Program-made: the position numbers and the translations under genes
Shown here: positions 29,347-45,600 of the stretch, one piece after another
Layout of the letters: each line of letters starts with the position of its first letter
Position numbering within the stretch: the first letter of the stretch is position 1
Notes under the pieces: model-generated
What the model was told of the DNA's origin: nothing
The model's database searches: none
Seen by the model: only the letters and a program-made list of their open reading frames with translations
Source of the DNA: a candidate division FCPU426 bacterium
GTDB lineage: Bacteria; Oederibacteriota; Muellerivitia; Muellerivitales; Muellerivitaceae
Assembly: GCA_963771075.1 (NCBI GenBank)
Contig: CAVYSE010000028.1
Coordinates: 366,234-430,233 of the forward strand
Reading direction: 5' to 3'
DNA length: 64,000 nt

Positions 29347-29557
29347 AAAAACCTTTCAAGGGTTAAGAAGGTGTTGTGTCGTTAAAATAACCGCACTCCA
29401 TCAAATATACAAGGGCAGGGGGCCCCTTATGGCCGGGTGAAATATCTTTTTAAAACACCATTTTCTAATGGGATTTTAACCTAGGTCATTTTTTCATTTG
29501 GAGCCTTACAGCACTTCCCCTTGGCCGAGGCCCTGCTTTGGGTGCGGCGATTACATA

Positions 29558-29744
29558 GAAGAACGAATCATAAATTCGTCCTAGGTTTAATTCTGACTTT
29601 CCCCCTTTGAAAAAGGGGGGAGAGGGGGGTATTAGCTGTTTCCGATGCAGTACGACAAGGCTAACTCCCCCTTGGTCCCCCTCTTTCAGAGGGGGGAAAA
29701 ATCATGCAACCTAAAACCCGGAACGGACTTATGATCCGGTCTAC
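29558..29744. repeat. Nested ~187-bp palindrome (REPIN/MITE-like)
   Basis: Outer imperfect inverted arms enclose two mutually inverted C-run/G-run hairpins. Confidence 0.7.
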
Positions 29745-29810
29745 TTAGGGGAACCGGCCCACCTGCCGGGAGCCCTCCAGACGAGCAGCGGGACTTGGTT
29801 GTGCCGGTTC

Positions 29811-30218
29811 CTAATGGGAACCGGCTGGAGGAATATCCACAAGCCTGTATCGGACGGTTTTTCCCGCCCCCAGCCGTTCAATCCGCCTTTGGCCCAACAG
29901 ATGCGGGAGCAAATAGGGGTTAAAGAACTTTGGTTTTGTCGTCAACCGGTTCAGGTTATAGGTCAGGCTGCTACGGGCCATGCCCAGTTCTTGGGCCAGT
30001 TCGCCCGGGGTCACCTCCCCCCGTTTTTCGATGCAGGCGATAATCCTTTCCAAATCCCCTAGGCTATCGTGGTGTTCTTTTCTTCCCTTTTTCCTGTTTT
30101 TGTAAGCCTCGGTCAGGGGGATAGGGGGGGATGGGGCCGATTGGGCCCGGGGTGATTCATTCTTCTCCAAACCAAAAATATTCCTCAGAAAACCCTTCAT
30201 AGGCGATTGTTCAACCAT
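29811..30218 (-). CDS. Small winged-helix-turn-helix DNA-binding protein
   Basis: GEVTPGELAQELGMARSSLTYNLNRL followed by IERLGAGKTVRYRL wing; GGGAGG RBS. Confidence 0.75.
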   Translation of the reverse strand: MVEQSPMKGFLRNIFGLEKNESPRAQSAPSPPIPLTEAYKNRKKGRKEHHDSLGDLERIIACIEKRGEVTPGELAQELGMARSSLTYNLNRLTTKPKFFNPYLLPHLLGQRRIERLGAGKTVRYRLVDIPPAGSH

Positions 30219-30256
30219 TGGATACCTCCCAAATTATTGGCTCAAAATCCTATTTT

Positions 30257-30597
30257 CCGCCAATTCTTCTTCGCAGTGGAAAAAATTGGCAGAAAGGACG
30301 GTAGGTCCGTTTTCCCAGTAAAATAAATTGGTAATTAGGCGTTATCCCGGTAAATTTAATTGGCAGGTAGGCCATTCCCGGTAAATAAAATTGGCAGAAA
30401 GGCGGTTTTTCAGTGGCAGGTACCGGTTACCCGAGAAATTAAATTGGCAGAAAGCGCAAAAAGTCCGGTCTCCCGTGTAATTAAATTGGGAAAAAGGCAG
30501 TCGGGGCTTGGTCTTTAGCAACAAAAATTGGCAGGAAGACAGTCCCTGGTTAAAAAAATTGGCAGGTTGCGGACAATCAAAGGCGGGTTTTGCCAAT
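30257..30597. repeat. Helically phased direct-repeat array, consensus about CCCGGTAAAWTAAATTGGCAG
   Basis: A(T/G)TGG cores start at 30285, 30327, 30359, 30390, 30412, 30443, 30485, 30527 and 30558; partial inverted copies at both ends. Confidence 0.85.
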
Positions 30598-33454
30598 CTC
30601 ATAGACTTTCAAGACTTCATCCCCATAGTGGTTGATGACTTTATGGCGATCTTCCCGGTTTGCCATTTTCAGGTTGGGGGATATCAAAAGGCCGGCTTTC
30701 GGTCTTATAGAGCGCCGACCAGGCGGATTCATCAATTTCAGCCCGTAAGGCCCGCTTGAGCTTGTCATAGGGTTCCTCGGCGCCGGTGAAGTAGGCGTGG
30801 CGCACGAAAAAGCTTTCGCCGTTGTAGTTGGTGTCGAGGAACCAGCAGGCGATATCGTCGGTCTTGTTGCTTCGCACGTCCCCGGTGGTGGGGTCATAAA
30901 CGTCCACCCCCTTGATCTTGACCGTCAGCTTGCCGTCCTTGGTTTTCTTGATATCCACATCCGGTTCCCCGAAGACCATGAACAGGTTCCCGGAACCGGT
31001 TTTCTTGAGCAATTCGTCGCCCATGGCCAGGTCGGGGTTCATGCGGGCTAAGAGGATAGGCAGTTTCCCGAATTGTTTGGCCTCTTCCGCCACGGCGAAA
31101 TCGTCGGCTTTTTGCTTGTCCGGTATGAATTCCTTCACCGTTTCCCCGGCATGGGCGTCATAGGCAAAACCCAACACCACCAAAAGGTCAAACCCCGCGC
31201 CTTTCATGGCCTCCTTGGCGGCTTCTTTGACTTGTTCTGGCCCCACGGTGCCATGTTCCGGCCCAATGGAAACCGCCACCCGGCGGGTTCCACCTTTTTT
31301 ATCAGTGTATTCGCCGATGGCGTGTATCCAAACACCCGCGAAGGGTTCTAACCGGTCAAACTTAATGCCTTCGTTTTTATGGGTGCTTTTAACCCCGGCT
31401 TTTCGGAGGTTATCGAGGATCGTGGTTTCGAACTGCCCCACCACCGCCTGTTTCTTGCCATCCACTTCAGAAACCGGCCTGGATTCGTCGGTGGATAACA
31501 CCCGATGGGGTGAAAGGCTTTCTACCGTGAAGGGGCCGGTGACCCGAACCCGCTTGTTGTCTTCGTAAGGTTGGTCGTAGAGGTATTCGTAATCGCCGTG
31601 TTTGGAAATGGATTCGTCCATTTCCTTTTGCCGTTCCTGCCGCAAGGCCCACCATTCTTCCAACAGCTTTTTGGCCTTGTCGGACCAGTCTGATTCCGCT
31701 TCTCGTGGAACTTCCCATTCTTCCCACTTTTGCTTGAGGGCCTTATTCAAGGATTCCAAGACAGGTACCAGCTTTTCCTTCCATTTGTTGTGAATTGTGT
31801 CGATCTCTTCGTTGTTGGCGATGGATTTGAGGGTGATGTGTGGCACGCGTTTATAGACGAACCCTTTTTTGATATCACTATCTGATTTTGGAAGGGGCAT
31901 TGATGGTGTTTTGTTGGTAACTTCGGCTTCTTTCATTATTCCAGTGTCAGAATCAGTAAGTAAGTAGTAAGGAAACTTAGCGGCCATAAGTCGTGTGCGT
32001 GCTAAGGCTAATGCCACACGCGATGTATCTGTTGTTATCCATCGTCTTCCCCATTGTTCGGCCACATAAGCAGTTGTCCCAGAACCGCACGTAGGATCAA
32101 ACACAAGATCTCCTGGATCAGTCGCCATAAGAATACAAGTTTCAATAATTTTTGGGCTTGTTTGAACTACATAAGTTTTTTCGTAGGAGATGGCAGTTGT
32201 TAACCAAAAATTCGTTAGTTTTTTATAAGGGAAATCAGCGAATTCCAAACGATAGCTTAAACTTTTCCCCTCTTCTTGAAGCCTATTTGCACATACCAAA
32301 CGGTCTAATTTTTGTTTATCGACTATCCAAGCCCCTCTACTTGGTGGGTTGAATTTTTCATTCCTAAAAGAATATTGAAAGTCAGTTTGTTCACTATACG
32401 AAGGCGCTATTACCGAAAATAATCGGTAATACTTTGTTCCCTTCGAATGCAGCTTATTTTTAAAATCCGAAGGGTCAATTTTCTCCCATTCTTCATTTGG
32501 GTATAAAGCGTATGGACCATGAGAACTAATTTGCGAAACATCGTTCTCTTCAAATAATTGTTTATACTTAAGCATCTGTTTGTTCTTTGCATAAAACAAT
32601 ATATGGTCATGCATTGTTTCTAAGTATTTAGCGCCGAGTGGTAATGTCTTTTTCCTGAAAATTATATTTGCAATAAAATTTTCGCTTCCAAAAACCTCAT
32701 CAAGTAAATTACAAACCAAGTGGTTATTTTCAGAGTTAATCTGGACAAAAATACTGCCTGATTCGGTTAATAAATCTCGGCTCTCTATAAATCGATCTCT
32801 TAAGTAGCTCAAATATGAATGAATCCCTTTTTCCCAAGTATCCCGGAATGCTTTTATTTGTTCAGGTTGTCTGGTTGCATCCTCAGCACGATCCTTAAGA
32901 TCATTTTTTCTTGTTGAAACCTGCCAATTCGAACCAAATTTAATACCATAGGGCGGATCCATGTAGATCATTTGGACCTTGCCCTTGAGCCCTTCCTTCT
33001 CCGCCAACGAATTCATCACGAGTAACGAATCACCCAAGATCATCCGGTTCGCCCATTTCACGTCATGCTGGTAGAAATCGATCATTTCCTCGAACTTGAT
33101 GCCGTTGAAATCTCCGAAAAGGTCGGCTTGGGATTCGGGCGCGTCCTTCTTTGCCTGCTTGCGGATATCCTCGATGATGTAACGGGGGTGGATTTTTTCC
33201 TGGATATAAACGGGAACGGCCGGAACCTTGAGCGGTTCCCTGTCCTGCTCGTCCTTTCCCTTCCAAACCAATTGCGGGTCCAGCGACGGGTCGCGGGCGT
33301 AAAGCAGGCCGGGGTATTCGATCGTTTTGGGCTTGTTCTCGTCCGCCTTGACGAAATCCCGCAGTTCCTCGGTGGGTATGTTCGCCCGCCGGTCCTTGTG
33401 CTTCAGGTTCTCGACTGGGATTTTGTTCTTTCCACTGCCCTTTTTAGGCGGCAT
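30577..33454 (-). CDS. mod: Type III R-M DNA methyltransferase (Mod)
   Basis: DPQLVWKGK, DPPY and DPTCGSGTT motifs. The conserved tail KVINHYGDEVLKVY lies out of frame at 30577-30650 because of an indel. Confidence 0.92.
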
Positions 33455-33501
33455 AAGAAGTCCTTGCTGTTAAAAAATTTGAATCTTTATGGCCATCCCT
33501 A

Positions 33502-34332
33502 TTATCTCTGTTTCAGCTTCTTCAAGCCTTTTTTAGGCGGTAAAAAATTCTCGCCTGTCACCACCTTTCGCCCTGTTTTGTTCTCCAACTCGAGCCGCGC
33601 CTTACGGGCGATGCCGCCTCCTTTTTGCCCTGCCTCTTTGTTCGGCTCCAGCCCCACGGCGCCTTCGGTTTCCGCGATCTGCCGGGTTGAAAGCTCGGCG
33701 AGGGCCGTGAAGATCAATTCCGCCTCGCTCATGTGGTCGCGGAGATTCTGGGTCTTGAGGCCTTTTATTTGCTTGTGGTCTTTTACCGAGACATCCGCCC
33801 ATTCCCGGTGGATGAGATCGGTCAAAAGGGCATATTCTTCATCGCCCTTGATCTCGTGATTTTTCCAGTAGTCCGTCAGTTTGTTTCGGGTTTCCTGGCC
33901 CATCATCCTCTGTTGGACCCATTTCTCGCTGCGGCCCTGCCGCAACCAATACTCCCGGGCACGGTCCAACGAAAGAGCGGGGTCTGCCATATCTTTCAGG
34001 CGTTCGTGGCCCACCTTAGCCAGCCACTGCTTGAGGGGCTCAACCTTGGGGGAAGGGATTGACTGCACGAGTCGCAAGATCTGTTCCGTATCCGCCATAT
34101 CCGTTAACCGATTCTTGCCATCCGCAGCGGTCATTTTCAACCTGTGACAATTTGTCACGGTTTGATTACCTTCTTTTCTAAGCCTTTCCTTGAGCTTTCG
34201 CCAATAAGCGCCGGGATCGACACTTTCAGTCAATGCGGAGACTATATCCACAATAACGAAAAACCATTTTTGGTTTTTCTCATCCCAAATACGCCGGACC
34301 TTTTTATCTTCAAATAAGACCATATTACCCAT
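33502..34332 (-). CDS. Bro-N domain DNA-binding protein
   Basis: FEDKKVRRIWD, YWRKLKERL, RLVQSIPSPK and NLRDHM motifs. Confidence 0.88.
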   Translation of the reverse strand: MGNMVLFEDKKVRRIWDEKNQKWFFVIVDIVSALTESVDPGAYWRKLKERLRKEGNQTVTNCHRLKMTAADGKNRLTDMADTEQILRLVQSIPSPKVEPLKQWLAKVGHERLKDMADPALSLDRAREYWLRQGRSEKWVQQRMMGQETRNKLTDYWKNHEIKGDEEYALLTDLIHREWADVSVKDHKQIKGLKTQNLRDHMSEAELIFTALAELSTRQIAETEGAVGLEPNKEAGQKGGGIARKARLELENKTGRKVVTGENFLPPKKGLKKLKQR

Positions 34333-34356
34333 GTTTCCTCCTCCCCCTTTTTCGTT

Positions 34357-37300
34357 CTATTTCATTCGGACCTGCTGCTCATCCGCGCATGATTTGCAGG
34401 ATTCTAAAAACTTCCTGATGGCCGTCTTTACATTCCAAGGGTCCGTGATTTCCAAAAAAGCCCATCTCCCATAACCCCCATCGTTATTCACGGCGGGCAC
34501 CCAGAAGTCCCTGGCGGTAGCCACTTTGGCTTGCTTTTCACGGCGTTGTTCACCGGTAACTTCTAATATCAGGTTTAAGGGATCTTCATGGCCATCTTTT
34601 AAACGCACAATGAAATCCGGAATATAGTCGTGTTCCTCGCCCTCAAAAATATAAGGAATCGTGAAATTCAAGTGCCGGTCGTTCTTGATGTAGCTGGAAA
34701 CTTCATCCATGTTTTCCAGGGACTCGGCCAATTTTTGTTCCCAATCCCTGGTATCCGCCACGATGAAATTGGCGTGGCACTTTCCCGGTTGGGTCTGGTA
34801 TAGGCGTTTCTTGGACGCCCGGAAATCAATGTACCGCGTGGAACCGACCGTGTCGAAAGACCGCAAGATGGGTTTTAAAACTTTCTGGCCTTCCGTGGAA
34901 CGGACGATGGCCCCGTAAATCTTCTCCGCCGCTTCCTCCAGGGGCCTGCTCAAGGATATGAGCGGTTTAAACGTATCGTCCTTGCATTCCAGGTATTCGT
35001 CATACCATTGGCGGACGATGGAAAGGATTTGGGGGAAAAGCCAAGGCTTGGGATTTCCCTCCGCGTCCGCGAAATACTTTTCCATGACCCTTTTGGCGAT
35101 ATGGAACTGCACTTCCTGGTTCCTCAGGCTTTTAAGCTTATCGAGCGTGTGGATGGTGACCTCGCCCACGATGGGGGCCACTTCGGTGGAGGTGGGCAAA
35201 TCGGCGGTGGAGAGGACCTTTTTGGATTCGGGCCCGAATTTCACGGACAATCTTTCCTCCGGCAGGTCGTAGCGGTATCCCGAAAGCCGGGGGAAGGTGA
35301 TTTCGGTTTTGGAGGGGTTCCCGATGGCAAAAACATGTTCGGGTGGATCTCCTAAATTGACTTCCGAGGCCGATCCGGAACAGGGAATGAATGAGAACGG
35401 GACGCCATAAACCTCGGCGTATTCCGGGTCAAAATAATCTTTCCCATCTTCTTTCCGTGTTGGGACGTAACTCATCCGGCGCAAGCCACGGCCCACGACC
35501 TGCTCGCATAAAAGCTGGGTTCCAAAGGCCCGGACGCCCAGGATATGGGTGACGGTGTTGGCGTCCCAACCCTCGGTCAGCATGGAAACCGAGACTACGC
35601 ATTTGATGTGCTCGCCCAGCTTCCCGGGTTTCCCGACCGTGTTCATGACCTCGCGCAGGATGTCCTGGTCCGTCAATTGGTCGGCGGAACGCCCCGGGTA
35701 GCGGACCATGTATTCCCGCTTGAATTCCTCGATCTCGTGTTCGGCCATTTTCTTGAAATCGGGGTTCATGGCGTCCTCCGATTCCAACTGTTCGCTGTCC
35801 ACCAGGATCGTATTGGGCCGGCCAAGCCACCCTCCGTTTTCGACGTTGCTGAAAAGCTCGAAAGCCCCCTTCACCAAAACCGTTTTGTCTTTTTTAAGCG
35901 TTTTCTCGTGGCCCGAAACGTAATCATATACCAGCTTGGAAACGTTGGTGTTGTTGCAGACGACGATGAAAACGGGAGGGGTCAGGCCGCGCCTGCGGTT
36001 CTCCGTGTTTTCTTCCCATTTCCGGTAATGCTTCTCGTAATTCTCGTAAAGGCTTTGGAGGGCGCCTTCCAATTCCAGGGGCAGCCGGGGGTTAGAGCCC
36101 AGGCCCTCGGTGCCGCGTCCCTTTTTGGGCAGGTTGTCCCGGATTCTCAGCCAAAGGTCCCGGTAGGTCGGCTGGTCCCCCACCATGGAGTTGTCGGAGA
36201 TGGGAACCCTGGGGATCTTGACGATGCCCGATTCGATGGCGTCCACCAGCGAAAAATCCGAAACCACCCAGGGGAACAGCGCCCCTTCCCTGTAACCGGA
36301 GCCCTTCAGGAAAAAGGGCGTCGCGGACAGGTCATAAACCGCCTTCACGCCCAGCTTGTTTTGGACGGCTTCCAGGCCGGAAATCCAGACGCGGGCTTCC
36401 TCATTGCGCTTTTCCGCCTCACGGGATTCGGCCCCGGAGAGGTCCTCCTCAATATCTTCCGCCGTTTCCACCCTGCGGCGGTAGCAATGGTGGGATTCGT
36501 CGTTGATCACGATGATGTTTTTCTTGTTCCCGAATTCCCGGCATACACGGCGGACCATCTGGTCCGGGGTTTCCGTGAAGGGGCTCGCGCCATTGTTGGC
36601 TTTGTCGTCTTTTCCGCGAAGGATGGCCTTGGTAAGTTTGCCCGCCTTGATAATTTCCCTGGGTTTGAATGAGTGGAAATTGGTGACGAGTATTTTGGCC
36701 GACCCGAGTTTCTCCAAGTCCTGGGAGGGGACCAAATCCATTTTTCGGTAATAGTTTTCGGGGTCATTGGGCAATAGGACCCGCAGGCGGTCGCGGATGG
36801 TGATGCCGGGGGTCACGATGAGAAAGGAATCCCCGAATTTGGGGTTCTGGGTTTCGGCGGCCTTGTTCAGGACGTGGTAGGCGATGGCCATGGCCATCAC
36901 GACGGTCTTCCCGCTTCCGGTCGCCATTTTGAAGGCCATGCGGAAGAGAAGCGGGTTCGCGTCGTCGTTGAATCGGCGGATGTCGTTCAACATCCAACTG
37001 TCGTTCTTGGGGGCGATTTCCGTCAGGTAAACCAGCGTCTCGATGGCTTCCACCTGGCAGAAGAAAAGCCGTTGGGGCCTTCCCGGGTTTTTCCAGTAAT
37101 CCAAAAGGCGGGCGGTGGTTCGGGTGATACCCGGATACTTGATTTTCCGCCATTCGGAAACCTTGGCGCGGATTTGGTTGATGAACTGGTTTTCCTGGAT
37201 GCGGTCCCCGGTCCATTCGGTGTTGAGGGAAAGCTGTTCCCTGCTTCTTTTCCTGGATTTGGGGATGGGCATGAAGTAGGAACTGACGCGCCTGGCGTCC

Positions 37301-37401
37301 TCGACCGTGTTCGTGATGCCCTCGTCGTCGAACTTGAAATGGCGCGCGGGTTCTTCGTAGGGGGAATTAAGGATGGGGTTGTCGATAACGACTTGGTTCA
37401 C
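34357..37401 (-). CDS. res: Type III restriction endonuclease/helicase (Res)
   Basis: FFCQVEAIET, MATGSGKT, DESHH and EGWD motifs; C-terminal YIPDF..ILEVTG nuclease region. Confidence 0.92.
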   Translation of the reverse strand: MNQVVIDNPILNSPYEEPARHFKFDDEGITNTVEDARRVSSYFMPIPKSRKRSREQLSLNTEWTGDRIQENQFINQIRAKVSEWRKIKYPGITRTTARLLDYWKNPGRPQRLFFCQVEAIETLVYLTEIAPKNDSWMLNDIRRFNDDANPLLFRMAFKMATGSGKTVVMAMAIAYHVLNKAAETQNPKFGDSFLIVTPGITIRDRLRVLLPNDPENYYRKMDLVPSQDLEKLGSAKILVTNFHSFKPREIIKAGKLTKAILRGKDDKANNGASPFTETPDQMVRRVCREFGNKKNIIVINDESHHCYRRRVETAEDIEEDLSGAESREAEKRNEEARVWISGLEAVQNKLGVKAVYDLSATPFFLKGSGYREGALFPWVVSDFSLVDAIESGIVKIPRVPISDNSMVGDQPTYRDLWLRIRDNLPKKGRGTEGLGSNPRLPLELEGALQSLYENYEKHYRKWEENTENRRRGLTPPVFIVVCNNTNVSKLVYDYVSGHEKTLKKDKTVLVKGAFELFSNVENGGWLGRPNTILVDSEQLESEDAMNPDFKKMAEHEIEEFKREYMVRYPGRSADQLTDQDILREVMNTVGKPGKLGEHIKCVVSVSMLTEGWDANTVTHILGVRAFGTQLLCEQVVGRGLRRMSYVPTRKEDGKDYFDPEYAEVYGVPFSFIPCSGSASEVNLGDPPEHVFAIGNPSKTEITFPRLSGYRYDLPEERLSVKFGPESKKVLSTADLPTSTEVAPIVGEVTIHTLDKLKSLRNQEVQFHIAKRVMEKYFADAEGNPKPWLFPQILSIVRQWYDEYLECKDDTFKPLISLSRPLEEAAEKIYGAIVRSTEGQKVLKPILRSFDTVGSTRYIDFRASKKRLYQTQPGKCHANFIVADTRDWEQKLAESLENMDEVSSYIKNDRHLNFTIPYIFEGEEHDYIPDFIVRLKDGHEDPLNLILEVTGEQRREKQAKVATARDFWVPAVNNDGGYGRWAFLEITDPWNVKTAIRKFLESCKSCADEQQVRMK

Positions 37402-37616
37402 GATATTCCCGCGGACATGAGATAAAACGGGGCCATTATAACTGCCTAATAAGTCGGGCTATGCCCCAATCTGTATTGGATTTCAAAAGCAAAAGGGGGC
37501 CGTGGATTGGCCGGAGGTGCTTCTAGGGGCAACAAAAAATCGTAAATTTAGGCGTGATATCAGAGGTATTCTTGATTGATGAGATCTGTGCTTTCTTATT
37601 CCAGGTGAGACGCCCG

Positions 37617-38000
37617 TTATCCGGCAAGGGATTCCAGCTTTTCCTTCAGGGCCGTGATCTTCCGAACCGTTCCGGCACGGTCTAAAGGGTCCTCGGCGGG
37701 ATCGTGCGACTCATAACGGAATTGGACGGCAAAGGCGTTGAGTTCGACCAGGTCCCAGAAGGGTTCCACATCCTCTCCGTCCGCCTTCAGTTCGGCGAGC
37801 AGCGCCCGGATGTCGTGCGTGAGGGGGTATTCCCTTCCCTTGGACGCAAGCCAGGCCTTCAAGTATTTTTCCACGGCCTGCTGGGCATGGAAGCCGAACA
37901 CTTCATCCGCGAATATCGCGGCGTTTCCCATGGCTTGCAAGGCCAGAACATCCCTCGCTGCTGCGTCCATCATTTGGCGGGCGGGATCATTCACGCTCAT
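37617..38000 (-). CDS. HEPN domain protein
   Basis: FHAQQAVEKYLKA, THDI and FRY motifs. Confidence 0.9.
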   Translation of the reverse strand: MSVNDPARQMMDAAARDVLALQAMGNAAIFADEVFGFHAQQAVEKYLKAWLASKGREYPLTHDIRALLAELKADGEDVEPFWDLVELNAFAVQFRYESHDPAEDPLDRAGTVRKITALKEKLESLAG

Positions 38001-38322
38001 AGAGGATCTTTCCCTCCCGCAAGGCCCGTCCCAACACGTGGTTGCGGTCGCCCCTCCAGCGTTCCATCTCATCCCGGCTGTAAAGCAGGAGGTCCAAGGG
38101 AACCCGCCAATCCCTCAATTTCATTCCGATGCGCGCCAATTCCCTCCGCCGGCTCCTGGCCGCCGAAAAAGGCTCCGATTCCACAACGATCAGGTCGATA
38201 TCGGAATGGGCCCCTCCCTCCCCCCGAGCCCGGGAGCCGAAAAGGATGATTCGCTCCGGATGCGCCGCCTCCACAATGGCCCGCCCTATTTCCTTGATCA
38301 TCCCTTCCGTGACCGTGACCAT
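37987..38322 (-). CDS. Minimal nucleotidyltransferase (MNT) of a HEPN-MNT pair
   Basis: IILFGSRARG..SDIDLIVV motif. Confidence 0.92.
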   Translation of the reverse strand: MVTVTEGMIKEIGRAIVEAAHPERIILFGSRARGEGGAHSDIDLIVVESEPFSAARSRRRELARIGMKLRDWRVPLDLLLYSRDEMERWRGDRNHVLGRALREGKILYERE

Positions 38323-38589
38323 TGCCTGTCCTTTTCCAAACTTTGCGGCCTATTCTATCCGGAAACCAAGGCCTCTTCCCATCGGCGGCCCGTAAAAGAT
38401 CGTCGGTTAATGCGGTTTTAAATGGCCTTATCCAATGAAACCCACCCTAAAAATGGAAGCGCGTAAATTTTGTATAATTGAGTATACAAAAATCACTTAT
38501 CAAAAAAGGCCTATTTTATTGGATAAAACAAGGGAATGGCTTTTGAGCTGGTAAACAGATGGAGACTGCGCCTTTATCGACCAATCGCA

Positions 38590-38752
38590 TCACCACTTCA
38601 CCGGGCATTTCATGATTTCACCTGATTGCTTGTGCTTGAAAAGGACATGCCCTTTTTCCCGGCCGAATTTCCAGAGGTCGTGGGTGAGCTTCACATCCTG
38701 CCGGCAATAGTCGATCACCTGGTCGAACTTCCCCTCCCGCCACCACTTCACC
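38590..38752 (-). pseudogene. Duplicated 3' end of the DUF1998 helicase gene
   Basis: 38593-38752 matches 42704-42863 at 148/160 nt by manual alignment and has its own TGA stop. Confidence 0.92.
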
Positions 38753-38764
38753 TCAATTATGCAC

Positions 38765-38926
38765 TTAACGTTTGAACTCCGTCCTCACCCCCCCTTTCAC
38801 GCCCTTCAAGTCGAATTTCTCCGGTTCGAACTCGCGGTCGAGCCAATCCGGCATTTGCCGGTGCTCGGGATGCTTGAGGTCAGCCACAACTGCCAAAAGG
38901 TCCTCATAGCCTGGCGGACCGCCGCC
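38765..38926 (-). pseudogene. C-terminal remnant of a pRiA4b ORF3-like protein
   Basis: Manual translation GGPPGYEDLLAVVADLKHPEHRQMPDWLDREFEPEKFDL; no start codon or N-terminus. Confidence 0.7.
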
Positions 38927-38955
38927 GGCCTGACTGTCAATCCTCAGGTATTTTC

Positions 38956-38993
38956 AATGACCCTCCCCGGGGCAAGCCCCGGGGAGGGTCATT
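38956..38993. terminator. Perfect GC-rich hairpin downstream of the SWIM gene
   Basis: AATGACCCTCCCCGGGGC-AA-GCCCCGGGGAGGGTCATT. Confidence 0.6.
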
Positions 38994-39027
38994 TTCATTT
39001 TCTGCACCATGACAATTTCTCCAAATA

Positions 39028-40779
39028 TCAACCCCATTTCTCCTTCTCAAGCAGGGCCATGAAATTACGCTTGGCTTTGTGCTTAAGGCGCATGACGGCC
39101 ATGTATTGTTTGAAGTCAGCCTCACGGCCCAGCCGGATCATGAGATCCCGGATCTTGCGGAGCAAGCCCACGGCTTCCCCATAGGCCTCGTTGTTCTTCC
39201 GGTCCAGTGTGGGCTCCACCCGTTTCTGGTAAATAGGCAGGGAGTCCGCGGGATGTTCCTTCTCCCTCTTGGCCGCCAACTCCATCCAAAGGCCTTCCGC
39301 GCAGCCGCCTTCCTGGGCCTCCCGCCACGCGGCTTCCAGGTTCCTTTCCCACAGGAACACGCGCACCAACTCGGAACGGCCGACGCCGTACAGGCCCCGG
39401 GAATGGAGCCGTGCGTCAGCCGCTTCCTTGGCGCCTTTTTTCCTGAGTAGCGCGATGGCCTTTTCCCGCCAGGAGGGCCACTGGGCCGCGCGGTCGGCGC
39501 TTTTTTTCAGCTTCTTGTATTCGTCCAAGCCGGGCGATCCGGCAAAACCGTCCCAAACTACTTTTATGGCTTCGTCATGCCGCTTGCGCCGGTGGTATTC
39601 CTCGGCCAGGAACTCCCTTAAATCAGGATGGGTGTCCCCCGGGAAGGCCTTGAGCCCTTGTTCGGCCCAATCCAGCGCCGAATCGTGTTTTCCCGCCTCC
39701 TTGTAGGTCCGCGCGATCCCAAGGAAGCCGTAGGCGCTTGATAGTTCCCGCTTCTTGACCTCAACCAAAGCCTCCACGTCCCCGGATTGCCGGGCCAGGG
39801 TTTCCATGATGCGCGTGATCCGGAAGCGCTTCCCGTATCTTTCCTCGTCCTTGCCGCCGGGTCCCAGGGCCGGCACATCCACCCACTCGACCTCGGCCAG
39901 TTTCCTGTACGAGGCGAGTCCCTCTTTCCCGAGGACATCCGCGTAGCTTTCCGCCGCGCCGAGGAAGGTTTCCCATTCCGAGTTGAGTTCCCAATCGAAA
40001 AGCCGCCGGGCCAGGTTCCCGGGGTCAGGCTTGGCTTTGCGGCAGGCCTGGAGGTGGATCTCCTGGAGATCCTCCAGGAGGCCGCCCATGAGCCCGTCCG
40101 AGTCGTCCACCGAACCCAGGGCCCCCTCGACGGCGGCCAGGGCGTACTCGCAAATCTCGACGGCCTCGTCGGCGTGGCCTTCCTTGAGGAGTTCCTCCAC
40201 CGATTCCACCGCTTCCCCGATCCGCGAGGCGTAATCGGGCAGGGCGCGGTAGTCCACGAAATCCCCGGCGCTGACCGCGTCGTCGATGGCCCGCCGGTAG
40301 GTGGAAAGGGCGATGCCCTTGGAACCCTTTTTCGCCGCGGCCAGGAGAAGCCGCTGCCGGAGGCGGTCATCGTTCATGGCCTGGTCCATGAGCAGCTTGA
40401 CGAGGGCATCCTTGCCTTGGGCCCCCAAGTGGGAACGGACGTCCTCCATGGTCACGGAGGGTTTTCCCACCTTTCCACCGCCCTTGGAGTTCCCGGCCTT
40501 TTGATGGAGCCAAGCCAGGCCCACGGCCACGCAATGCTTGCAGAAGTCGCCCTCAATACCCATTGGACAGGAGCAGTCATAGTCGAGTCCCCCGCCCTTA
40601 TCCCGCAGCTTCACGCGGTAGGCCCCTTGGTCGCCGTGGACCTTGGCGGTGATGGTTCCCTCGTAACCCTCCAAGGACCGCACCCGTCCATTGTTGAAAT
40701 AGTCCTCCCCCCGGGCGAACGAACGCTCCCCCGCCATGCGGCGCAGCGCCGAAGGGTTGAATGAAGCCTCCTGGGCCAT
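39028..40779 (-). CDS. SWIM zinc-finger protein with helical C-terminus
   Basis: SFARGEDYF and CSCP..FCKHCVA motifs. Confidence 0.88.
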   Translation of the reverse strand: MAQEASFNPSALRRMAGERSFARGEDYFNNGRVRSLEGYEGTITAKVHGDQGAYRVKLRDKGGGLDYDCSCPMGIEGDFCKHCVAVGLAWLHQKAGNSKGGGKVGKPSVTMEDVRSHLGAQGKDALVKLLMDQAMNDDRLRQRLLLAAAKKGSKGIALSTYRRAIDDAVSAGDFVDYRALPDYASRIGEAVESVEELLKEGHADEAVEICEYALAAVEGALGSVDDSDGLMGGLLEDLQEIHLQACRKAKPDPGNLARRLFDWELNSEWETFLGAAESYADVLGKEGLASYRKLAEVEWVDVPALGPGGKDEERYGKRFRITRIMETLARQSGDVEALVEVKKRELSSAYGFLGIARTYKEAGKHDSALDWAEQGLKAFPGDTHPDLREFLAEEYHRRKRHDEAIKVVWDGFAGSPGLDEYKKLKKSADRAAQWPSWREKAIALLRKKGAKEAADARLHSRGLYGVGRSELVRVFLWERNLEAAWREAQEGGCAEGLWMELAAKREKEHPADSLPIYQKRVEPTLDRKNNEAYGEAVGLLRKIRDLMIRLGREADFKQYMAVMRLKHKAKRNFMALLEKEKWG

Positions 40780-40820
40780 AGGACTTATTTTCCTTCCCGT
40801 CCCTACTTGGCGTAGGCCGC

Positions 40821-41108
40821 CTAAAATTTCACGTCCGGATATCTTTTAACGATCATTTCCAACAAACCAGGGAACTTCCGCTCACAGTCCCTTTTGCCTT
40901 GCCCGCCATCGGAAAGGAAAAAAGAAAAATCATAACCCTGTGCGCGGGTGGTCAATCGAGTCCTGCGGACTTGAAAATCGATGTATGCCGATCCGTCGTA
41001 TTGAAGGAAATAATCCACCTGTGACCCATTATTTAATACCAAAGAACCGTATCTTTCCTTAATTTCACCCATGAAATTCCATCCCTGGGATTTAATTTCC
41101 AAGACCAT
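40821..41108 (-). CDS. Hypothetical protein (AT-richer than neighbours)
   Basis: 95-aa ORF co-oriented between the ATPase and SWIM genes. Confidence 0.5.
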   Translation of the reverse strand: MVLEIKSQGWNFMGEIKERYGSLVLNNGSQVDYFLQYDGSAYIDFQVRRTRLTTRAQGYDFSFFLSDGGQGKRDCERKFPGLLEMIVKRYPDVKF

Positions 41109-41153
41109 TGTTTTTAACTTTTTTACTAATTCATCTATCCTTTTCCAAACTTC

Positions 41154-42647
41154 CTACCCCTCCCTTCCCCAGCCCTCCAGGAAACGGTTGAGGAACTCGG
41201 ACAGGGACTTCTCGCGCTCCACGTATTGGGACAGCACCCAGGCCACGGTGACGGCGATATGGTAGCTCTCCGACCGGGACTGGGCGGCCCGACGGTAGGC
41301 GGGGTGGGCCTGGTTCACGCAGACGGTGGTGCCCGAGAGCCAGCCCATCTCGGGGCGGTCCGGCCTCAAGTCGAAGGTGATCCTCAAGCCCGCCGGTTTT
41401 TTCTGGCTTTCTTCCCCCTCCTCGCCCGGCTCCACCGCGTCCACAGGTTTTTCCGGTTCCGCCGCGGCCGACGGCTTTTCCGCGACGTCCTTTTCCACGG
41501 GTTCGGCAGGGGGCGTTCCCGGTCGCGCCTCTTTCCCCTCCCCGCCGCCGGGGATAGCCCTGCGCCTCGTGTCCAAGAGGGGCCGCAACTCAGGAAAATC
41601 CCCCACCAGGCCCGCCACCACCTGCTCGATTTCCTTCTGCGAGGGATAGGCTTTCTTGGGGGAGGATTCCAGCGCCGCCTCCCATTCCCCCAGATCTCCT
41701 AGGGCCGGTTCCACCATCTTCAGGATGGCTTTCCGGTACCGGTAATACTGCTTGAGGCTGGTGGAGTCCTTGAGGAAATCCGCCTTGTGGGTCGTCAGGA
41801 GAGCGGCCCAGCCCGGGATCTCGATCATACCGGTGATCCGGTCCGGGTTGCCGGGGCGGATACCCAGCCATTCCCACCCGCGCTTGATGACCTTTCCGTA
41901 GGTGGCGGCCCCCAGGCCGCGCTTTTCCTCGGGCAGGGGGGCGGGGGAAACCCCCACCCACCCGAAACCCGCCAGGGTGCGCCGGGCACCCAGGTGGATG
42001 GGGAAAAACCGGCTGCGTTCGGGCGGGAACTGCGCCGCTTCACCCTCCAAACGCCGACCGGAAACGATGAAGGAAAAGGGACGCCGGTAGAGCCTACCGT
42101 AAATGGCTTCCACGAAACGAGGATGCAACAGGGGCTCAAAATGCCTGCGCAAGACCTCCTCCAGCCAGGGGGCTTCCAGGAGTTTCGAATGGGCGGAGGC
42201 CAGGTGGAACGAGATGGCGGTTCCGTTTGTGCCTTCCGGCACCAGCCCCTGGGGCCCGACATATCGCCAGGGAGCCCGCAGGGGGGATTCCAGGTGCCAG
42301 CGGGTCGCGTGGTGGGATTTCCCGCAGCGGCTCTCGGTGGTCACGGCCTCGCAGATCAAAAGCGAAAGCTTGGCGCCGATGCCGGCGAACCCGATGCCCT
42401 TGCCCCGGACCTTGGTGGAGGAAGCGATGTCGTGGTAGCCCTTGAGGCTGCCGCGGGCCATGCCCTTGCCGTCGTCTCGCACCACGAGGGTTTTCTCGGC
42501 GGGATGGGGCTCGAACCACGCGGTGGACGCCCCCGAATCCAGGGCATTGGCCACCAGTTCGGTGATGATGGTTTCCTCCTCGGGGAAGGGATAGCCGTCC
42601 CGGATATCCTCCAGGAGGTGCCTCAGGTTGATGCGAGTCTGGCCCAC
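41154..42647 (-). CDS. GHKL (MORC/Hsp90-like) ATPase
   Basis: ELVANALD, DDGKGM and GIGFAGIGAK motifs. Confidence 0.85.
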   Translation of the reverse strand: MGQTRINLRHLLEDIRDGYPFPEEETIITELVANALDSGASTAWFEPHPAEKTLVVRDDGKGMARGSLKGYHDIASSTKVRGKGIGFAGIGAKLSLLICEAVTTESRCGKSHHATRWHLESPLRAPWRYVGPQGLVPEGTNGTAISFHLASAHSKLLEAPWLEEVLRRHFEPLLHPRFVEAIYGRLYRRPFSFIVSGRRLEGEAAQFPPERSRFFPIHLGARRTLAGFGWVGVSPAPLPEEKRGLGAATYGKVIKRGWEWLGIRPGNPDRITGMIEIPGWAALLTTHKADFLKDSTSLKQYYRYRKAILKMVEPALGDLGEWEAALESSPKKAYPSQKEIEQVVAGLVGDFPELRPLLDTRRRAIPGGGEGKEARPGTPPAEPVEKDVAEKPSAAAEPEKPVDAVEPGEEGEESQKKPAGLRITFDLRPDRPEMGWLSGTTVCVNQAHPAYRRAAQSRSESYHIAVTVAWVLSQYVEREKSLSEFLNRFLEGWGREG

Positions 42648-42697
42648 GAAAACCTCCGGCTTGCGACTATTAAATATTTCTCCCCTGGACGGTCATC

Positions 42698-45600
42698 TTA
42701 TCCCCACTTCACAGGGCATTTCACGATTTCACCCGATTGCTTGTGCTTGAAAAGGACATGGCCGTTTTCCCTTCCGAATTTCCAGAGGTCGTGGGTGAGT
42801 TTTACGTCCTGGCGGCAATAGTCGATCACTTGGTCGAACTTCCCCTCCCGCCACCACTTCACCGCCAAGAGGCCGTCCGCGCTTTTTTCCGCCCCTCCCA
42901 GAGTATGCTCCGCCAGGTGGGCCAGGGAAAGACGGTGGTTCAGCGTTTTTTGCAGGTCCGCCATTAAATCCAGCGAGGGGAGGCTCTGAAGGTTGAAGGA
43001 TGCGTAACCCTGAAGCACCCCGTAGTCGAACCGAAGCGTGTTGAAACCAATCACTAAACTGGCGGCTTTAAGGTGCCGCAATAAATCTTGCACCGTGCTC
43101 TCCACGTAGGTGAAATATTTATCCAGCTGGATGTCATAAACCACCGCGCAGGAAAGTTTCATGCCCGGCAGGTTGCCCCACCCCCCCTGAATTTCCCCCG
43201 CCAAGTATTGGGTTTCGATGTCGAATACAACCGTGCCCGTCTTTTCCGGCGGATTTTCTTTGTACGTTCCGGGTTGGGGGCCCTGGGAAGGCGAGAGGGG
43301 GTTCGCGATGGGAGCTTTTTTCACGAACAGGTTTTCCGTTTTCGGAAACAGATCCGGGCTTGGTCCGGGGGCAGGCGACTGGGTTCGAGCCTTATAGTCT
43401 TCCCGCCCGAGAATAAAACCCAGGATACGAAGGGCTCCTTCCTTATCCAGCGGATGGTTCCCGCTCCCGCACTTGGGGGATTGCACGCAGGAGGGACAGC
43501 CCTCCTCACATCCGCAATCCCGGATCATCTCAAAGGTGGTCGAGAGCAGTTCTTCCATTGTCCCGTAGGCCTTTTGTGTCAACCCGACCCCGCCGGGATA
43601 ACCATCGTAAATGAAGATGACCGGCTGAGGCACTTGTGGATGGGCCGGGGTGGAGATTCCTCCCAGGTCCCATCGGTCGCAAACCACATGCAGGGGCATC
43701 ATGGCGATGGTTCCGTGTTCGGCGGCGTGGAGCCCGCCCATGAAATGGATCTTCCGGTCCGTGACCTGTCGTTGAAGAGTCTCGGGAAGCGCCATCCAAA
43801 GGGCTTTCGTCTCAAAGGTTTGCGTGGGAAGAGTGAGGGGATAGGTGGAAACCAGGCCCTGGTCCAGGAGGCGATGAACCTCATAATTGATGAACCGCTG
43901 GGTGATCTTGACCCGGCCGAAGCGAATGGAACATTGGGATTTGGCCGGGCCCAGGTGTCTTCGGTTTTCCTCCTGCAGGATCTCCGTTTCCTCCTCATAA
44001 TTGACCTGGGTGTAATAATCCACAGGCTCATCCAGGACCAGTATCTTGCGCTGTTCCCATTGCAGGTCCTTGACCACGTATTGGATGCCCTGGTGCAAAT
44101 ACACCGCGCCCGGGTGGCAGTCCCGAAAAGCGCGCGAGCCATCGATGGTTCCGATCACTTCCCCCGTGTCCTGCCGGATGATGGAATAACCCTCCCCCAT
44201 TTCCCGAATACTGACCGAACGCTGGGGATTTTTATCCGTTACCAGGAATTTATCCCCGGCCGCGGTCTCCAGCACCAAACCTTCTTGGACCATGGGTTTT
44301 AACCATTGGCCCAAAGCCGGGCCGTAGATAGGCCCGTCCCCCTCCAAGGTAATGGGGATCTCGGATGACGCGCAACGCAGGTGGTTTTTCGCGATAACTT
44401 CATTTTCAAAACCCACCATCAGGGACTCGGGCCTCATAGAAAAAAACCGCGAAGGGTGCTTCATCCAATATTGGTCCATGGCGTCCGCCATCCCGACGAG
44501 AAAGACCGCCGAAGGAGCCTGCCCCCGGCCAACCCGGCCCGAACGCTGCCATGTGGAGATCATGGTTCCGGGATAACCCACCAGGACGCAGGCGTCGAGA
44601 CCGCCCACGTCGATGCCCACCTCCAAAGCGGAGGTGGAGATGACCGCGCTCAATTCATCCTTAAAAAGCAGGGATTCGATCTCCCGCCTTTCCTCCGGCA
44701 AATATCCCGCCCGGTAACTTCGAATCCGGGAGGCCCATTCCGGCCTCGACTGGTGGACCCACAGGCTGATGAGTTCGGTGATCTTTCGCGCCTTTGTAAA
44801 AACGATGGTTTTAAGGCCCTGGTCCAGGCACTCGATGAGAAGTGTCACCGCCGCGGTGTAAGGCGATCCCGACTCGGGGTTCCACAGGACAAAAGTTTTT
44901 TTATTTTGGGGCGCCCCAGATTCGGAAATAATCTCAAAATCCTGGCCGGTCAACCCCTTGAGGAATTCCTCCGGGTTTCCCAGCGTAGCCGAACATGTCA
45001 CAAAGTGGGGATCGGTGCCATAATGGCGACAGACCCGCCTTAATCGGCGAACAACATGCGCGACATGGGCGCCAAAGATTCCCCGGTAACTGTGGGCCTC
45101 ATCGATCACCACGATTTTCAAGTTCTTGAAAAATTCGGCCCATCCGTCGTGAAACGCCAAGATGCCCAAGTGGAGCATATCCGGATTGGAAAGCAATATA
45201 TTCGGCGGGTTCTTTCTAATTTTGGCTCGAACCCCGGATGGGGTATCCCCGTCGTAGATCTCGGCGCTGAATTCCGGTAACCCGTTCGTTTTAAATCGGC
45301 CTTTCCATTCCTGGAGGTTTTTAAGCTGATCCTGCGCCAAGGCTTTCACGGGATAAAGGTAAAGGGCCCGGTATTTGGGGCTTTCCAAAATTCCATTAAA
45401 TACTGGCAGGTTGAAACACATGGTTTTACCCGAGGCGGTGGGGGTGGTCACAGCCGTGTGTTTCCCCGCGAGGATGGCGTCCAAGGCTTGCGCTTGATGG
45501 GTCCATGGGGCCTCAAACCCCGAATTTTTAAGGACCCCCATCAAAGAATCGGAAAGCCCCTTGGGCCACGCCGAATACCGGGCTTGGGTTGCCTGAATGA

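Follow-up and report, generated by a model that had tools for sequence, protein, structure and literature searches.

A winged-helix protein family with helically phased operators and a predicted membrane anchor: a candidate DNA-to-membrane tether in the Muellerivitaceae

The window analyzed here (one stretch of 64,000 nucleotides) encodes a 135-residue winged-helix protein, P0001, directly downstream of a row of helically phased repeats, and these repeats are half-sites of an inverted operator, CCAATT-N19-AATTGG (47 bp with its outer bases), that is shared by a family of such genes. Based on the operators, their co-variation with the recognition helix, their phasing, and a predicted membrane anchor, we favor, on balance, the reading that protein and sites form an autoregulated tether between DNA and membrane, which would hold the locus that carries it at the inner membrane. 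The best reading of its mode of action, by analogy, is that it would work like RocS, RicO, Noc, or pSK1 Par while standing outside those families. The window lies on a 430-kb chromosomal contig and contains both dnaA and dnaN; its DNA is present in soil and bog metagenomes, no RNA run is among the sequencing runs listed as containing it, and the organism is uncultured. Table 1 lists the features discussed.

Table 1. Features of the winged-helix module and its surroundings, in window positions
Feature	Position	Strand	Basis or remark
Gene of the 135-aa winged-helix protein P0001	29811..30218	-	ORF; Pfam HTH_24 E 4.9e-6; AlphaFold2
Recognition-helix segment RSSLTY, residues 82-87; R82 and T86 co-vary with the operator	29958..29975	-	Co-variation
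Predicted amphipathic membrane-binding helix, residues 7-17 (MKGFLRNIFGL), then Pro/Ser-rich linker	30168..30200	-	Hydrophobic moment 0.66, family conservation
Ribosome-binding site GGAGG, 6 nt 5' of ATG	30225..30229	-	Sequence
Proximal full inverted operator, CCAATT-N18-AATTGG, outer bases CTG/CCG	30252..30297	.	Family norm N19
Seven further direct-repeat half-sites and one partial unit (30412), single 10.5-bp register	30300..30570	-	Sequence, phasing
AATTGG of the seven further half-sites	30326, 30358, 30389, 30442, 30484, 30526, 30557	-	Sequence
Degenerate inverted half-site, membership doubtful; probably within the true methylase gene 3' end	30590..30597	+	Sequence, public contigs
Accessory island (wHTH module, mod, Bro-N, res, HEPN/nucleotidyltransferase, SWIM-TPR, HATPase)	29400..42700, approximate ends	.	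Domain annotation

An earlier note on this DNA had described an orphan winged-helix gene with a good ribosome-binding site. The domain and the site are as described, with an HTH_24 match that exceeds the Pfam cut-off, but the gene is no orphan, since P0001 has three close paralogs in the same genome. In the AlphaFold2 model, residues about 49 to 128 form a confident winged helix, while residues 1 to 24 are unfolded with low confidence (the helix segment has a pLDDT of about 45). P0001 contains no hydrophobic 19-mer. Fold searches return generic winged helices in the PDB, with best E values of 3e-4 (sequence) and 4e-3 (fold) and with TubR and archaeal AspA among the weak matches, and the ESM Atlas matches are all unnamed clusters of winged helices, at best 0.91 with P0001 and 0.87 with the multi-pass protein described below. 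There is no match to P0001 above a cut-off in NCBIfam, PHROGs, or PADLOC. Another member, P0025, passes Pfam PF22168 (DIP2311-like C-terminal winged helix) with 30.4 bits against a cut-off of 27, so the family's domain is probably of the DIP2311-like kind; it differs from DIP2311-like proteins in standing alone, with a predicted anchor. We found no published description of the family or of its layout in the open-access literature, and no promoter was located.

The note had counted nine repeats upstream of this gene. Their core positions and their spacings of 42, 32, 31, 22, 31, 42, 42, and 31 bp are confirmed, except that the unit at 30412 has only a partial core. The eight complete units have the gene-strand consensus CCTTTCTGCCAATTTTATTTACCGGGA, and array units are ~70% alike and recur with a period of 22 to 42 bp. 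The claim of helical phasing holds, with a mean cosine of 0.96 at 10.5 bp (p ~5e-6 for all eight spacings and 1e-3 for the four distinct ones), and for AA/TT amplitude at 10.5 bp the array ranks within the top 0.05% of genome windows (n = 28,308). The genome-wide motif scan that the note had proposed shows the array to be unique: a density of eight same-strand AATTGG in 300 bp is reached nowhere else in the 4.39-Mb genome, and neither a unit-profile scan nor BLAST of the region finds a second copy in it. A public contig covers positions 29806 to 32112 without any substituted base, and the array is therefore not an assembly artifact.

Several ordinary identities for such an array can be set aside. 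We agree with the note that spacings that are not multiples of 3 rule out a protein repeat and that this is no CRISPR array, which would have near-identical repeats and unique spacers of roughly constant length; the similarity and period of the units do not fit, and Rfam gives nothing beyond chance-level matches in the window. The window also contains no tRNA or tmRNA. An iteron origin was rejected, as there is no Rep family match for P0001 or its neighbors and no plasmid or phage match, and the array is 17 kb from the chromosomal dnaA. The REP-like repeat and the 28-bp cassette palindrome of this genome are different sequences from the array. A link to the latter was rejected, since the palindrome is absent from all four paralog loci. 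The REP-like repeat forms a double hairpin at window positions 29593 to 29699 and has more than 30 relatives in the genome, one of them also 3' of the paralog on contig C24.

The inverted copies that were thought to cap both ends of the array call for correction. The proximal one (30260 to 30265) is not a cap but the second half of a family operator. As to the distal one, three public runs yield contigs in which the methylase gene is two bases longer near its 3' end (at 30642 and 30653); with these the methylase stop falls at 30577, and the distal copy thus probably lies inside coding sequence. The methylase C terminus as given in the window is probably misassembled. Single-base insertions or deletions relative to the public contigs also occur at 39801 and 42179, and in the Bro-N gene, which has an in-frame palindromic stretch at 33700 to 33725, the public contigs differ at three positions near 33706 to 33721.

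Upstream regions of homologues, which the note had proposed to search for a common motif, were compared for 31 distinct loci, leaving out duplicates, remnants, one locus without upstream DNA, and one weak false match. By a rule that requires, no more than 700 bp upstream, an inverted CCAATT-N16-22-AATTGG whose outer bases are symmetric, 26 of the 31 loci share the operator, and 42 of the 49 operators found have the 19-bp spacer. The same rule finds none downstream of the gene in 26 regions (0.005 expected per 700 bp). Over the whole genome the operator rule gives 29 sites, and operators with symmetric outer bases are confined in this genome to the four paralog loci and to three places elsewhere. 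Most loci have one to four operators, and a direct-repeat array proper is found in only 3 of 31. In the window, the proximal pair (30260 to 30289, with an 18-bp spacer) is centered 56 bp before the start codon, and the remaining units are half-sites in direct repeat. In 15 of 26 loci the center of the nearest operator is 31 to 56 bp away from the start codon, on its 5' side; in L051 an operator is 5' of a DUF1016 gene, which is itself 5' of the winged-helix gene. Of the loci that lack an operator, L009 and L044 have half-site arrays like that of the window, L036 has one half-site, L019 has nothing, and L007 has a degenerate pair before the preceding gene instead. Thus, the two-part module that the note had proposed, a winged-helix protein with cognate phased sites, recurs among homologues. 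Phased sites are found family-wide; the basic site, which the note had missed, is the 47-bp inverted operator. The 19-bp spacers are palindromic yet variable, with pairing of 0.67 to 0.95 per position versus 0.24 to 0.59 between different spacers, and the spacer bases beside the center pair too (0.69 versus 0.29).

The operators co-vary with the recognition helix, as the note had suggested should be checked, in that two helix residues track the outer bases across 28 loci. At base -2 (two outside CCAATT), an R at the start of the recognition helix is found with T in 17 of 17 loci and a K with G in 11 of 11, an association that represents one event on the tree; the loci are kin. Base -1 follows the residue four places on: A with T (11/11), I or V with T (9/9), K with G (2/2), and T with G (5/6, the sixth T-type locus being a tie). 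In this genome, P0001 is of the T type and the C3/C11 paralogs are of the I type. In an independent-pair test for base -1, using a tree built without the helix columns, 4 of 4 pairs agree (sign test p 0.125), and L047, a T-type protein within an A-type clade, carries the T-type base. We regard this as good but small-sample evidence of cognate binding, and it is likely, judging from the sequences, that the repeats are bound by the adjacently encoded protein.

The phasing also extends across the family. In 22 of 23 cases, the distance between successive operators (62 to 377 bp) deviates from a whole number of 10.5-bp turns by no more than 0.2 turn, and the mean cosine of 0.75 is reached in 0 of 200,000 random draws, likewise for the 21 distinct values; these p values are overstated because the loci are kin. 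The one exception (289 bp, in L008) spans a repeated insert. The direct-repeat arrays of L009 (best period 10.6, p 0.006) and L044 (p 0.003) are phased too, and the recognition sites within an operator are ~31 bp (three turns) apart, which is the commonest step of the window array. Phasing by itself is equally required by looping repressors and plasmid centromeres.

What the two-part description had missed is a predicted membrane anchor. One fixed rule predicts an anchor in 35 of 51 complete-domain members; in the control set, soluble ORFs from the same genome, the figure is 77 of 380. There are 26 N-terminal, 8 C-terminal, and 2 transmembrane anchors, with 1 member having both ends. In long-form members the N terminus carries a motif of the MKGFLRNIFGL type; a short-form clade is without it and has an equivalent C-terminal one (e.g., LKGLLKKVLKG), and two family members have a C-terminal transmembrane helix. 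A distant member, P0064, consists of a winged helix, a transmembrane helix, and an outer domain. Of the 16 members that fail the rule, several are near misses or cut short and about six are anchorless by eye. The anchor-like segment is always attached through a low-complexity linker, which is rich in Pro and Ser, and no coiled coil was detected in any of 62 members by a crude four-heptad rule. The fact that the element is kept while its position and type change, on a flexible linker, suggests that it most likely binds a surface rather than a specific pocket.

A profile search among 1.84 billion entries returned 54 representatives at E ≤1e-10, all of 69 to 221 aa. No longer fused forms were found at E 0.001 among 8,000 candidates, which is a weak test, and there are no AlbA_2 or HATPase fusions among the best 101 profile matches or in a weak search of longer proteins. 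In 99 genomes of the phylum, many of them incomplete, the family is present in 12, all from one bacterial family (11 of 30 besides this genome, compared with 0 of 68 from other families). Broken copies are seen at L016, L017, L036, and L048, and this frequent breakage, together with the patchy distribution, argues against a core role of the family in segregation. There are 0 matches in collections of 72,556 plasmids and 50,697 phages, and one scan of IMG/VR with a narrow pattern found none. The neighbors of family genes include cas operons, MazF, PIN, and DUF1016 genes, efflux genes, and metabolic genes, and many are defense or toxin-antitoxin genes. Five copies are at the cas6e/cas1 junction of CRISPR operons (L003, L008, L010, L052, and L054), often after a DUF1016 gene; these include two different specificity types, and in L003, L052, and L054 the winged-helix gene overlaps cas1. 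The next gene has the same orientation in 18 of 26 loci and is convergent in 8, and no target gene beside the module is conserved across the 26 loci. Several copies stand alone among ordinary genes, with their operators intact and phased. At L017/L025 and L041, a partial second winged-helix 3' end is found ~1.3 kb downstream, and the copies bracket a toxin-antitoxin-like gene pair. On contig C24 of this genome, a 360-bp operator-containing stretch is present twice (G000:C24:143062-143420 and 150431-150790; 90% identity, 7.4 kb apart), and the duplicates bracket a paralog and several accessory genes.

In the window, the winged-helix gene is the last gene of an accessory island of ~13 kb that is located between an MrfA-like helicase gene and an HD-GYP gene, about 17 kb from dnaA. 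These two genes adjoin each other in the same-genus genomes G002 and G003, where the island is missing between them, and their junction, which holds different inserts in different genomes, looks like an insertion hotspot. In G008 (L069:13269-13870), a second copy of the final 96 codons of the MrfA-like helicase gene is found 4 kb downstream, where it immediately precedes an operator and a truncated winged-helix gene. Four DNA sequencing runs showed no joint across the island. The island has no integrase, Rep, or transfer gene, in agreement with the earlier observation that no Rep, ParA, or integrase partner is beside the winged-helix gene. The note had placed this gene at the edge of a type III R-M island; it is at an island edge, but the link to R-M looks incidental because the module has many unrelated neighbors elsewhere. 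Dependence on an R-M system was rejected, being unseen at other loci except for one methylase neighbor (L061). Origin anchoring as a general role was also rejected: only the copies in G000, G018, and G008 (truncated) are 11 to 17 kb from dnaA, while others are 74 kb (G044) and about 260 kb (G014) away or are on other contigs.

Two further anchored families are present in these genomes. One is represented here by L006, a more distant protein in which a winged helix is fused to a multi-pass membrane domain that has no Pfam match (L006/L074, G000:C24:86950-88340; L075, L081, and L082). A repeat particular to it is present upstream in 13 copies; the upstream repeat of this family is ATTGTGCCA. Relatives in G001 and G002 have 17-bp tandem repeats in 26 to 30 or more copies, the period of which is not helical. 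In the L009 array (G014), the half-site of the winged-helix family is interleaved with a second repeat, and this is also arrayed before the broken multi-pass-family winged-helix genes L077, L084, and L085 (G024).

The other family is ParB-like. Its site, a variable 15-bp palindrome plus AAATAAGGG, is found in frame inside the coding sequence of each of four ParB-like members; two of the four proteins carry amphipathic and hydrophobic segments at the C-terminal end. There are 11 matches to this family in this genome, including L086 (G000:C11:541179-542891), and it is present in 13 of 31 genomes of the bacterial family: 9 of the 12 that have winged-helix members and 4 of the 19 that have none. 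At 8 of 31 loci, though not in the window array, its sites are interspersed with the winged-helix operators (0.004 would be expected per 700 bp), and they are in the helical register of the operators (17 distances with a mean cosine of 0.84; 12 distinct, p 5e-6). A shared surface fits this common register better than looping by one protein. L087 (G000:C22:24164-24530) is a row of six different perfect 15-bp palindromes, AATT-framed and mostly followed by CAAATAAGGG, at spacings of 63, 63, 52, 63, and 64 bp, which are whole turns; it is located between rplI and an HTH/peptidase-like pair, with no winged-helix gene adjoining. Elements of this type are also found at C20:35800-36560, C1:34080-34400, and C24:42276-42380, and the same element is present inside the ParB-like genes. 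A broader and rather doubtful extension is that a kit of mobile single-gene membrane tethers might organize the chromosome of this bacterial family: three unrelated anchored families, with their own sites, orthogonal specificities achieved through one- or two-residue changes, and one shared register, for which DNA would be an oligomerizing scaffold that docks accessory loci (CRISPR adaptation, restriction, and toxin-antitoxin genes) on the membrane.

As we picture the tether, each protein would read ~11 bp, with the outer bases contacted by the recognition helix and the AATT tract probably by a basic KKGRK arm or the wing. Sites that are whole turns apart would put all of the proteins on one face of the DNA, so that their weak helices could insert into the membrane together. 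In this way multivalency, which RocS owes to a coiled coil and Noc to spreading, would come from the phased DNA itself; since the family has no coiled coil, the DNA array would be the natural source. Filling of the sites next to the start codon would stop synthesis, and the level of protein would then roughly match the number of sites. Possible gains for the cell or the module would be the positioning of accessory DNA, anchoring of the nucleoid locally, or the inheritance of a mobile piece.

A possible alternative, to which we give appreciable but clearly lesser weight, is that the protein is a looping or wrapping repressor of its own promoter that controls co-transcribed accessory genes, with a helix that senses the membrane (e.g., its potential) or binds a partner, and that any tethering is a side effect. 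The short distance from the nearest operator to the start codon is what such a repressor would show, as are the frequent co-orientation of the next gene, the overlap with cas1, the two further loci in cas operons, the operator that precedes the DUF1016 gene in L051, the many defense or toxin-antitoxin neighbors, and a fold like that of ordinary MarR/ArsR-type regulators. However, no target gene is conserved, and in 8 of 26 loci the next gene is convergent. The small members have no ligand or sensor domain, such operators are found almost only beside the winged-helix genes themselves, and the sites of the unrelated ParB-like family are in the same register.

In another reading, which is unlikely, a plasmid or an integrative element has left copies of the module stranded in chromosomal insertion hotspots; it would be a one-gene cassette for partition, of the kind represented by pSK1 Par and R388 StbA, and the array would be an idle centromere. 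A gene with upstream phased repeats and no NTPase is indeed the StbA-stbS layout (bioRxiv 2022.04.29.490116). The island is missing from its site in two same-genus genomes, the G008 copy follows a duplicated helicase 3' end as it would after integration of a circle, and paralogs of different specificity resemble incompatibility types. Against this, the plasmid, phage, and IMG/VR searches found no match, the island is without an integrase, Rep, or transfer gene, and copies that stand alone between ordinary genes have kept their operators intact and phased. Even less probable, to the point of being very unlikely, is that the repeats are mobile-element ends or recombination sites, or single-stranded DNA or RNA hairpins, with which the gene merely travels. 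The palindromic though sequence-variable spacers and the duplicated operator-containing stretches on C24 could be explained in this way, but the pairing of bases beside the spacer center would not be needed in a hairpin loop, and both the helix co-variation and the phasing over long distances speak for binding to duplex DNA. Rfam gives no family match, and the REP-like repeat and the cassette palindrome, with its absence from the paralog loci, are distinct from these sites.

We compare the proposed tether, our favored reading, with known systems. Few DNA-membrane tethers are known; they are mostly from Firmicutes and need a coiled coil or a CTP clamp for multivalency. If our reading is correct, a 135-residue protein that owes its multivalency to phased DNA sites would be simpler than any tether known so far, and orthogonal protein-site pairs would make the effects of membrane attachment on a locus (expression, recombination, spacer uptake, and inheritance) testable in laboratory strains. 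The family offers natural specificity variants and a readable helix-base code. ToxR/CadC-type regulators are likewise winged helices held at the membrane, by a transmembrane helix, with an outer sensor domain; in contrast, P0001 has no transmembrane helix, sensor domain, or conserved target, and P0064 matches these regulators only in outline.

The closest parallels are RocS of Streptococcus pneumoniae, RicO of Staphylococcus aureus, and pSK1 Par, in which a small HTH protein joins DNA to the membrane through a terminal amphipathic helix and no NTPase takes part (PMC11500499; bioRxiv 10.64898/2026.03.06.710092); in our family the helix is predicted and the membrane link proposed. A single RocS helix is described there as insufficient for membrane hold and as replaceable by a transmembrane helix (PMC11500499), and evolution of the winged-helix family appears to have made the same swap. 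In contrast to these MerR-type proteins, the family has an HTH_24/MarR/ArsR-type winged helix with no MerR match, no coiled coil, and, in the members scanned, no match to DUF536 (found in RocS and Par). Its anchor can be at either end, its sites are only beside the gene, and it has a visible specificity code, while RicO has nine non-palindromic sites across about 700 kb (bioRxiv 10.64898/2026.03.06.710092). It is also patchy, multi-copy, and accessory.

The Noc-NBS system (Bacillus subtilis) resembles the module in having an N-terminal amphipathic helix followed by a variable spacer, and the Noc helix is reported to be weak and to need nucleoprotein complexes with many DNA-bound copies (PMC4331003). 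However, P0001 has no ParB_N match or ParB/CTPase domain, no spreading is evident, and each family gene has one site cluster rather than the about 70 dispersed sites given for Noc (PMC4331003). TubR-tubC and StbA-stbS share with the module a small (winged-)helix protein and phased direct repeats directly upstream of its gene, and their autorepression is proposed here as well (PMC5016525; bioRxiv 10.1101/2022.04.29.490116). In contrast to TubZRC, neither TubZ nor another motor is encoded next to the gene, in the window or at the annotated loci, and the family was not found on plasmids. Compared with TubR and StbA as described there, the basic family site is an inverted pair three turns apart, and the protein has, in addition, a predicted membrane anchor (PMC5016525; bioRxiv 10.1101/2022.04.29.490116).
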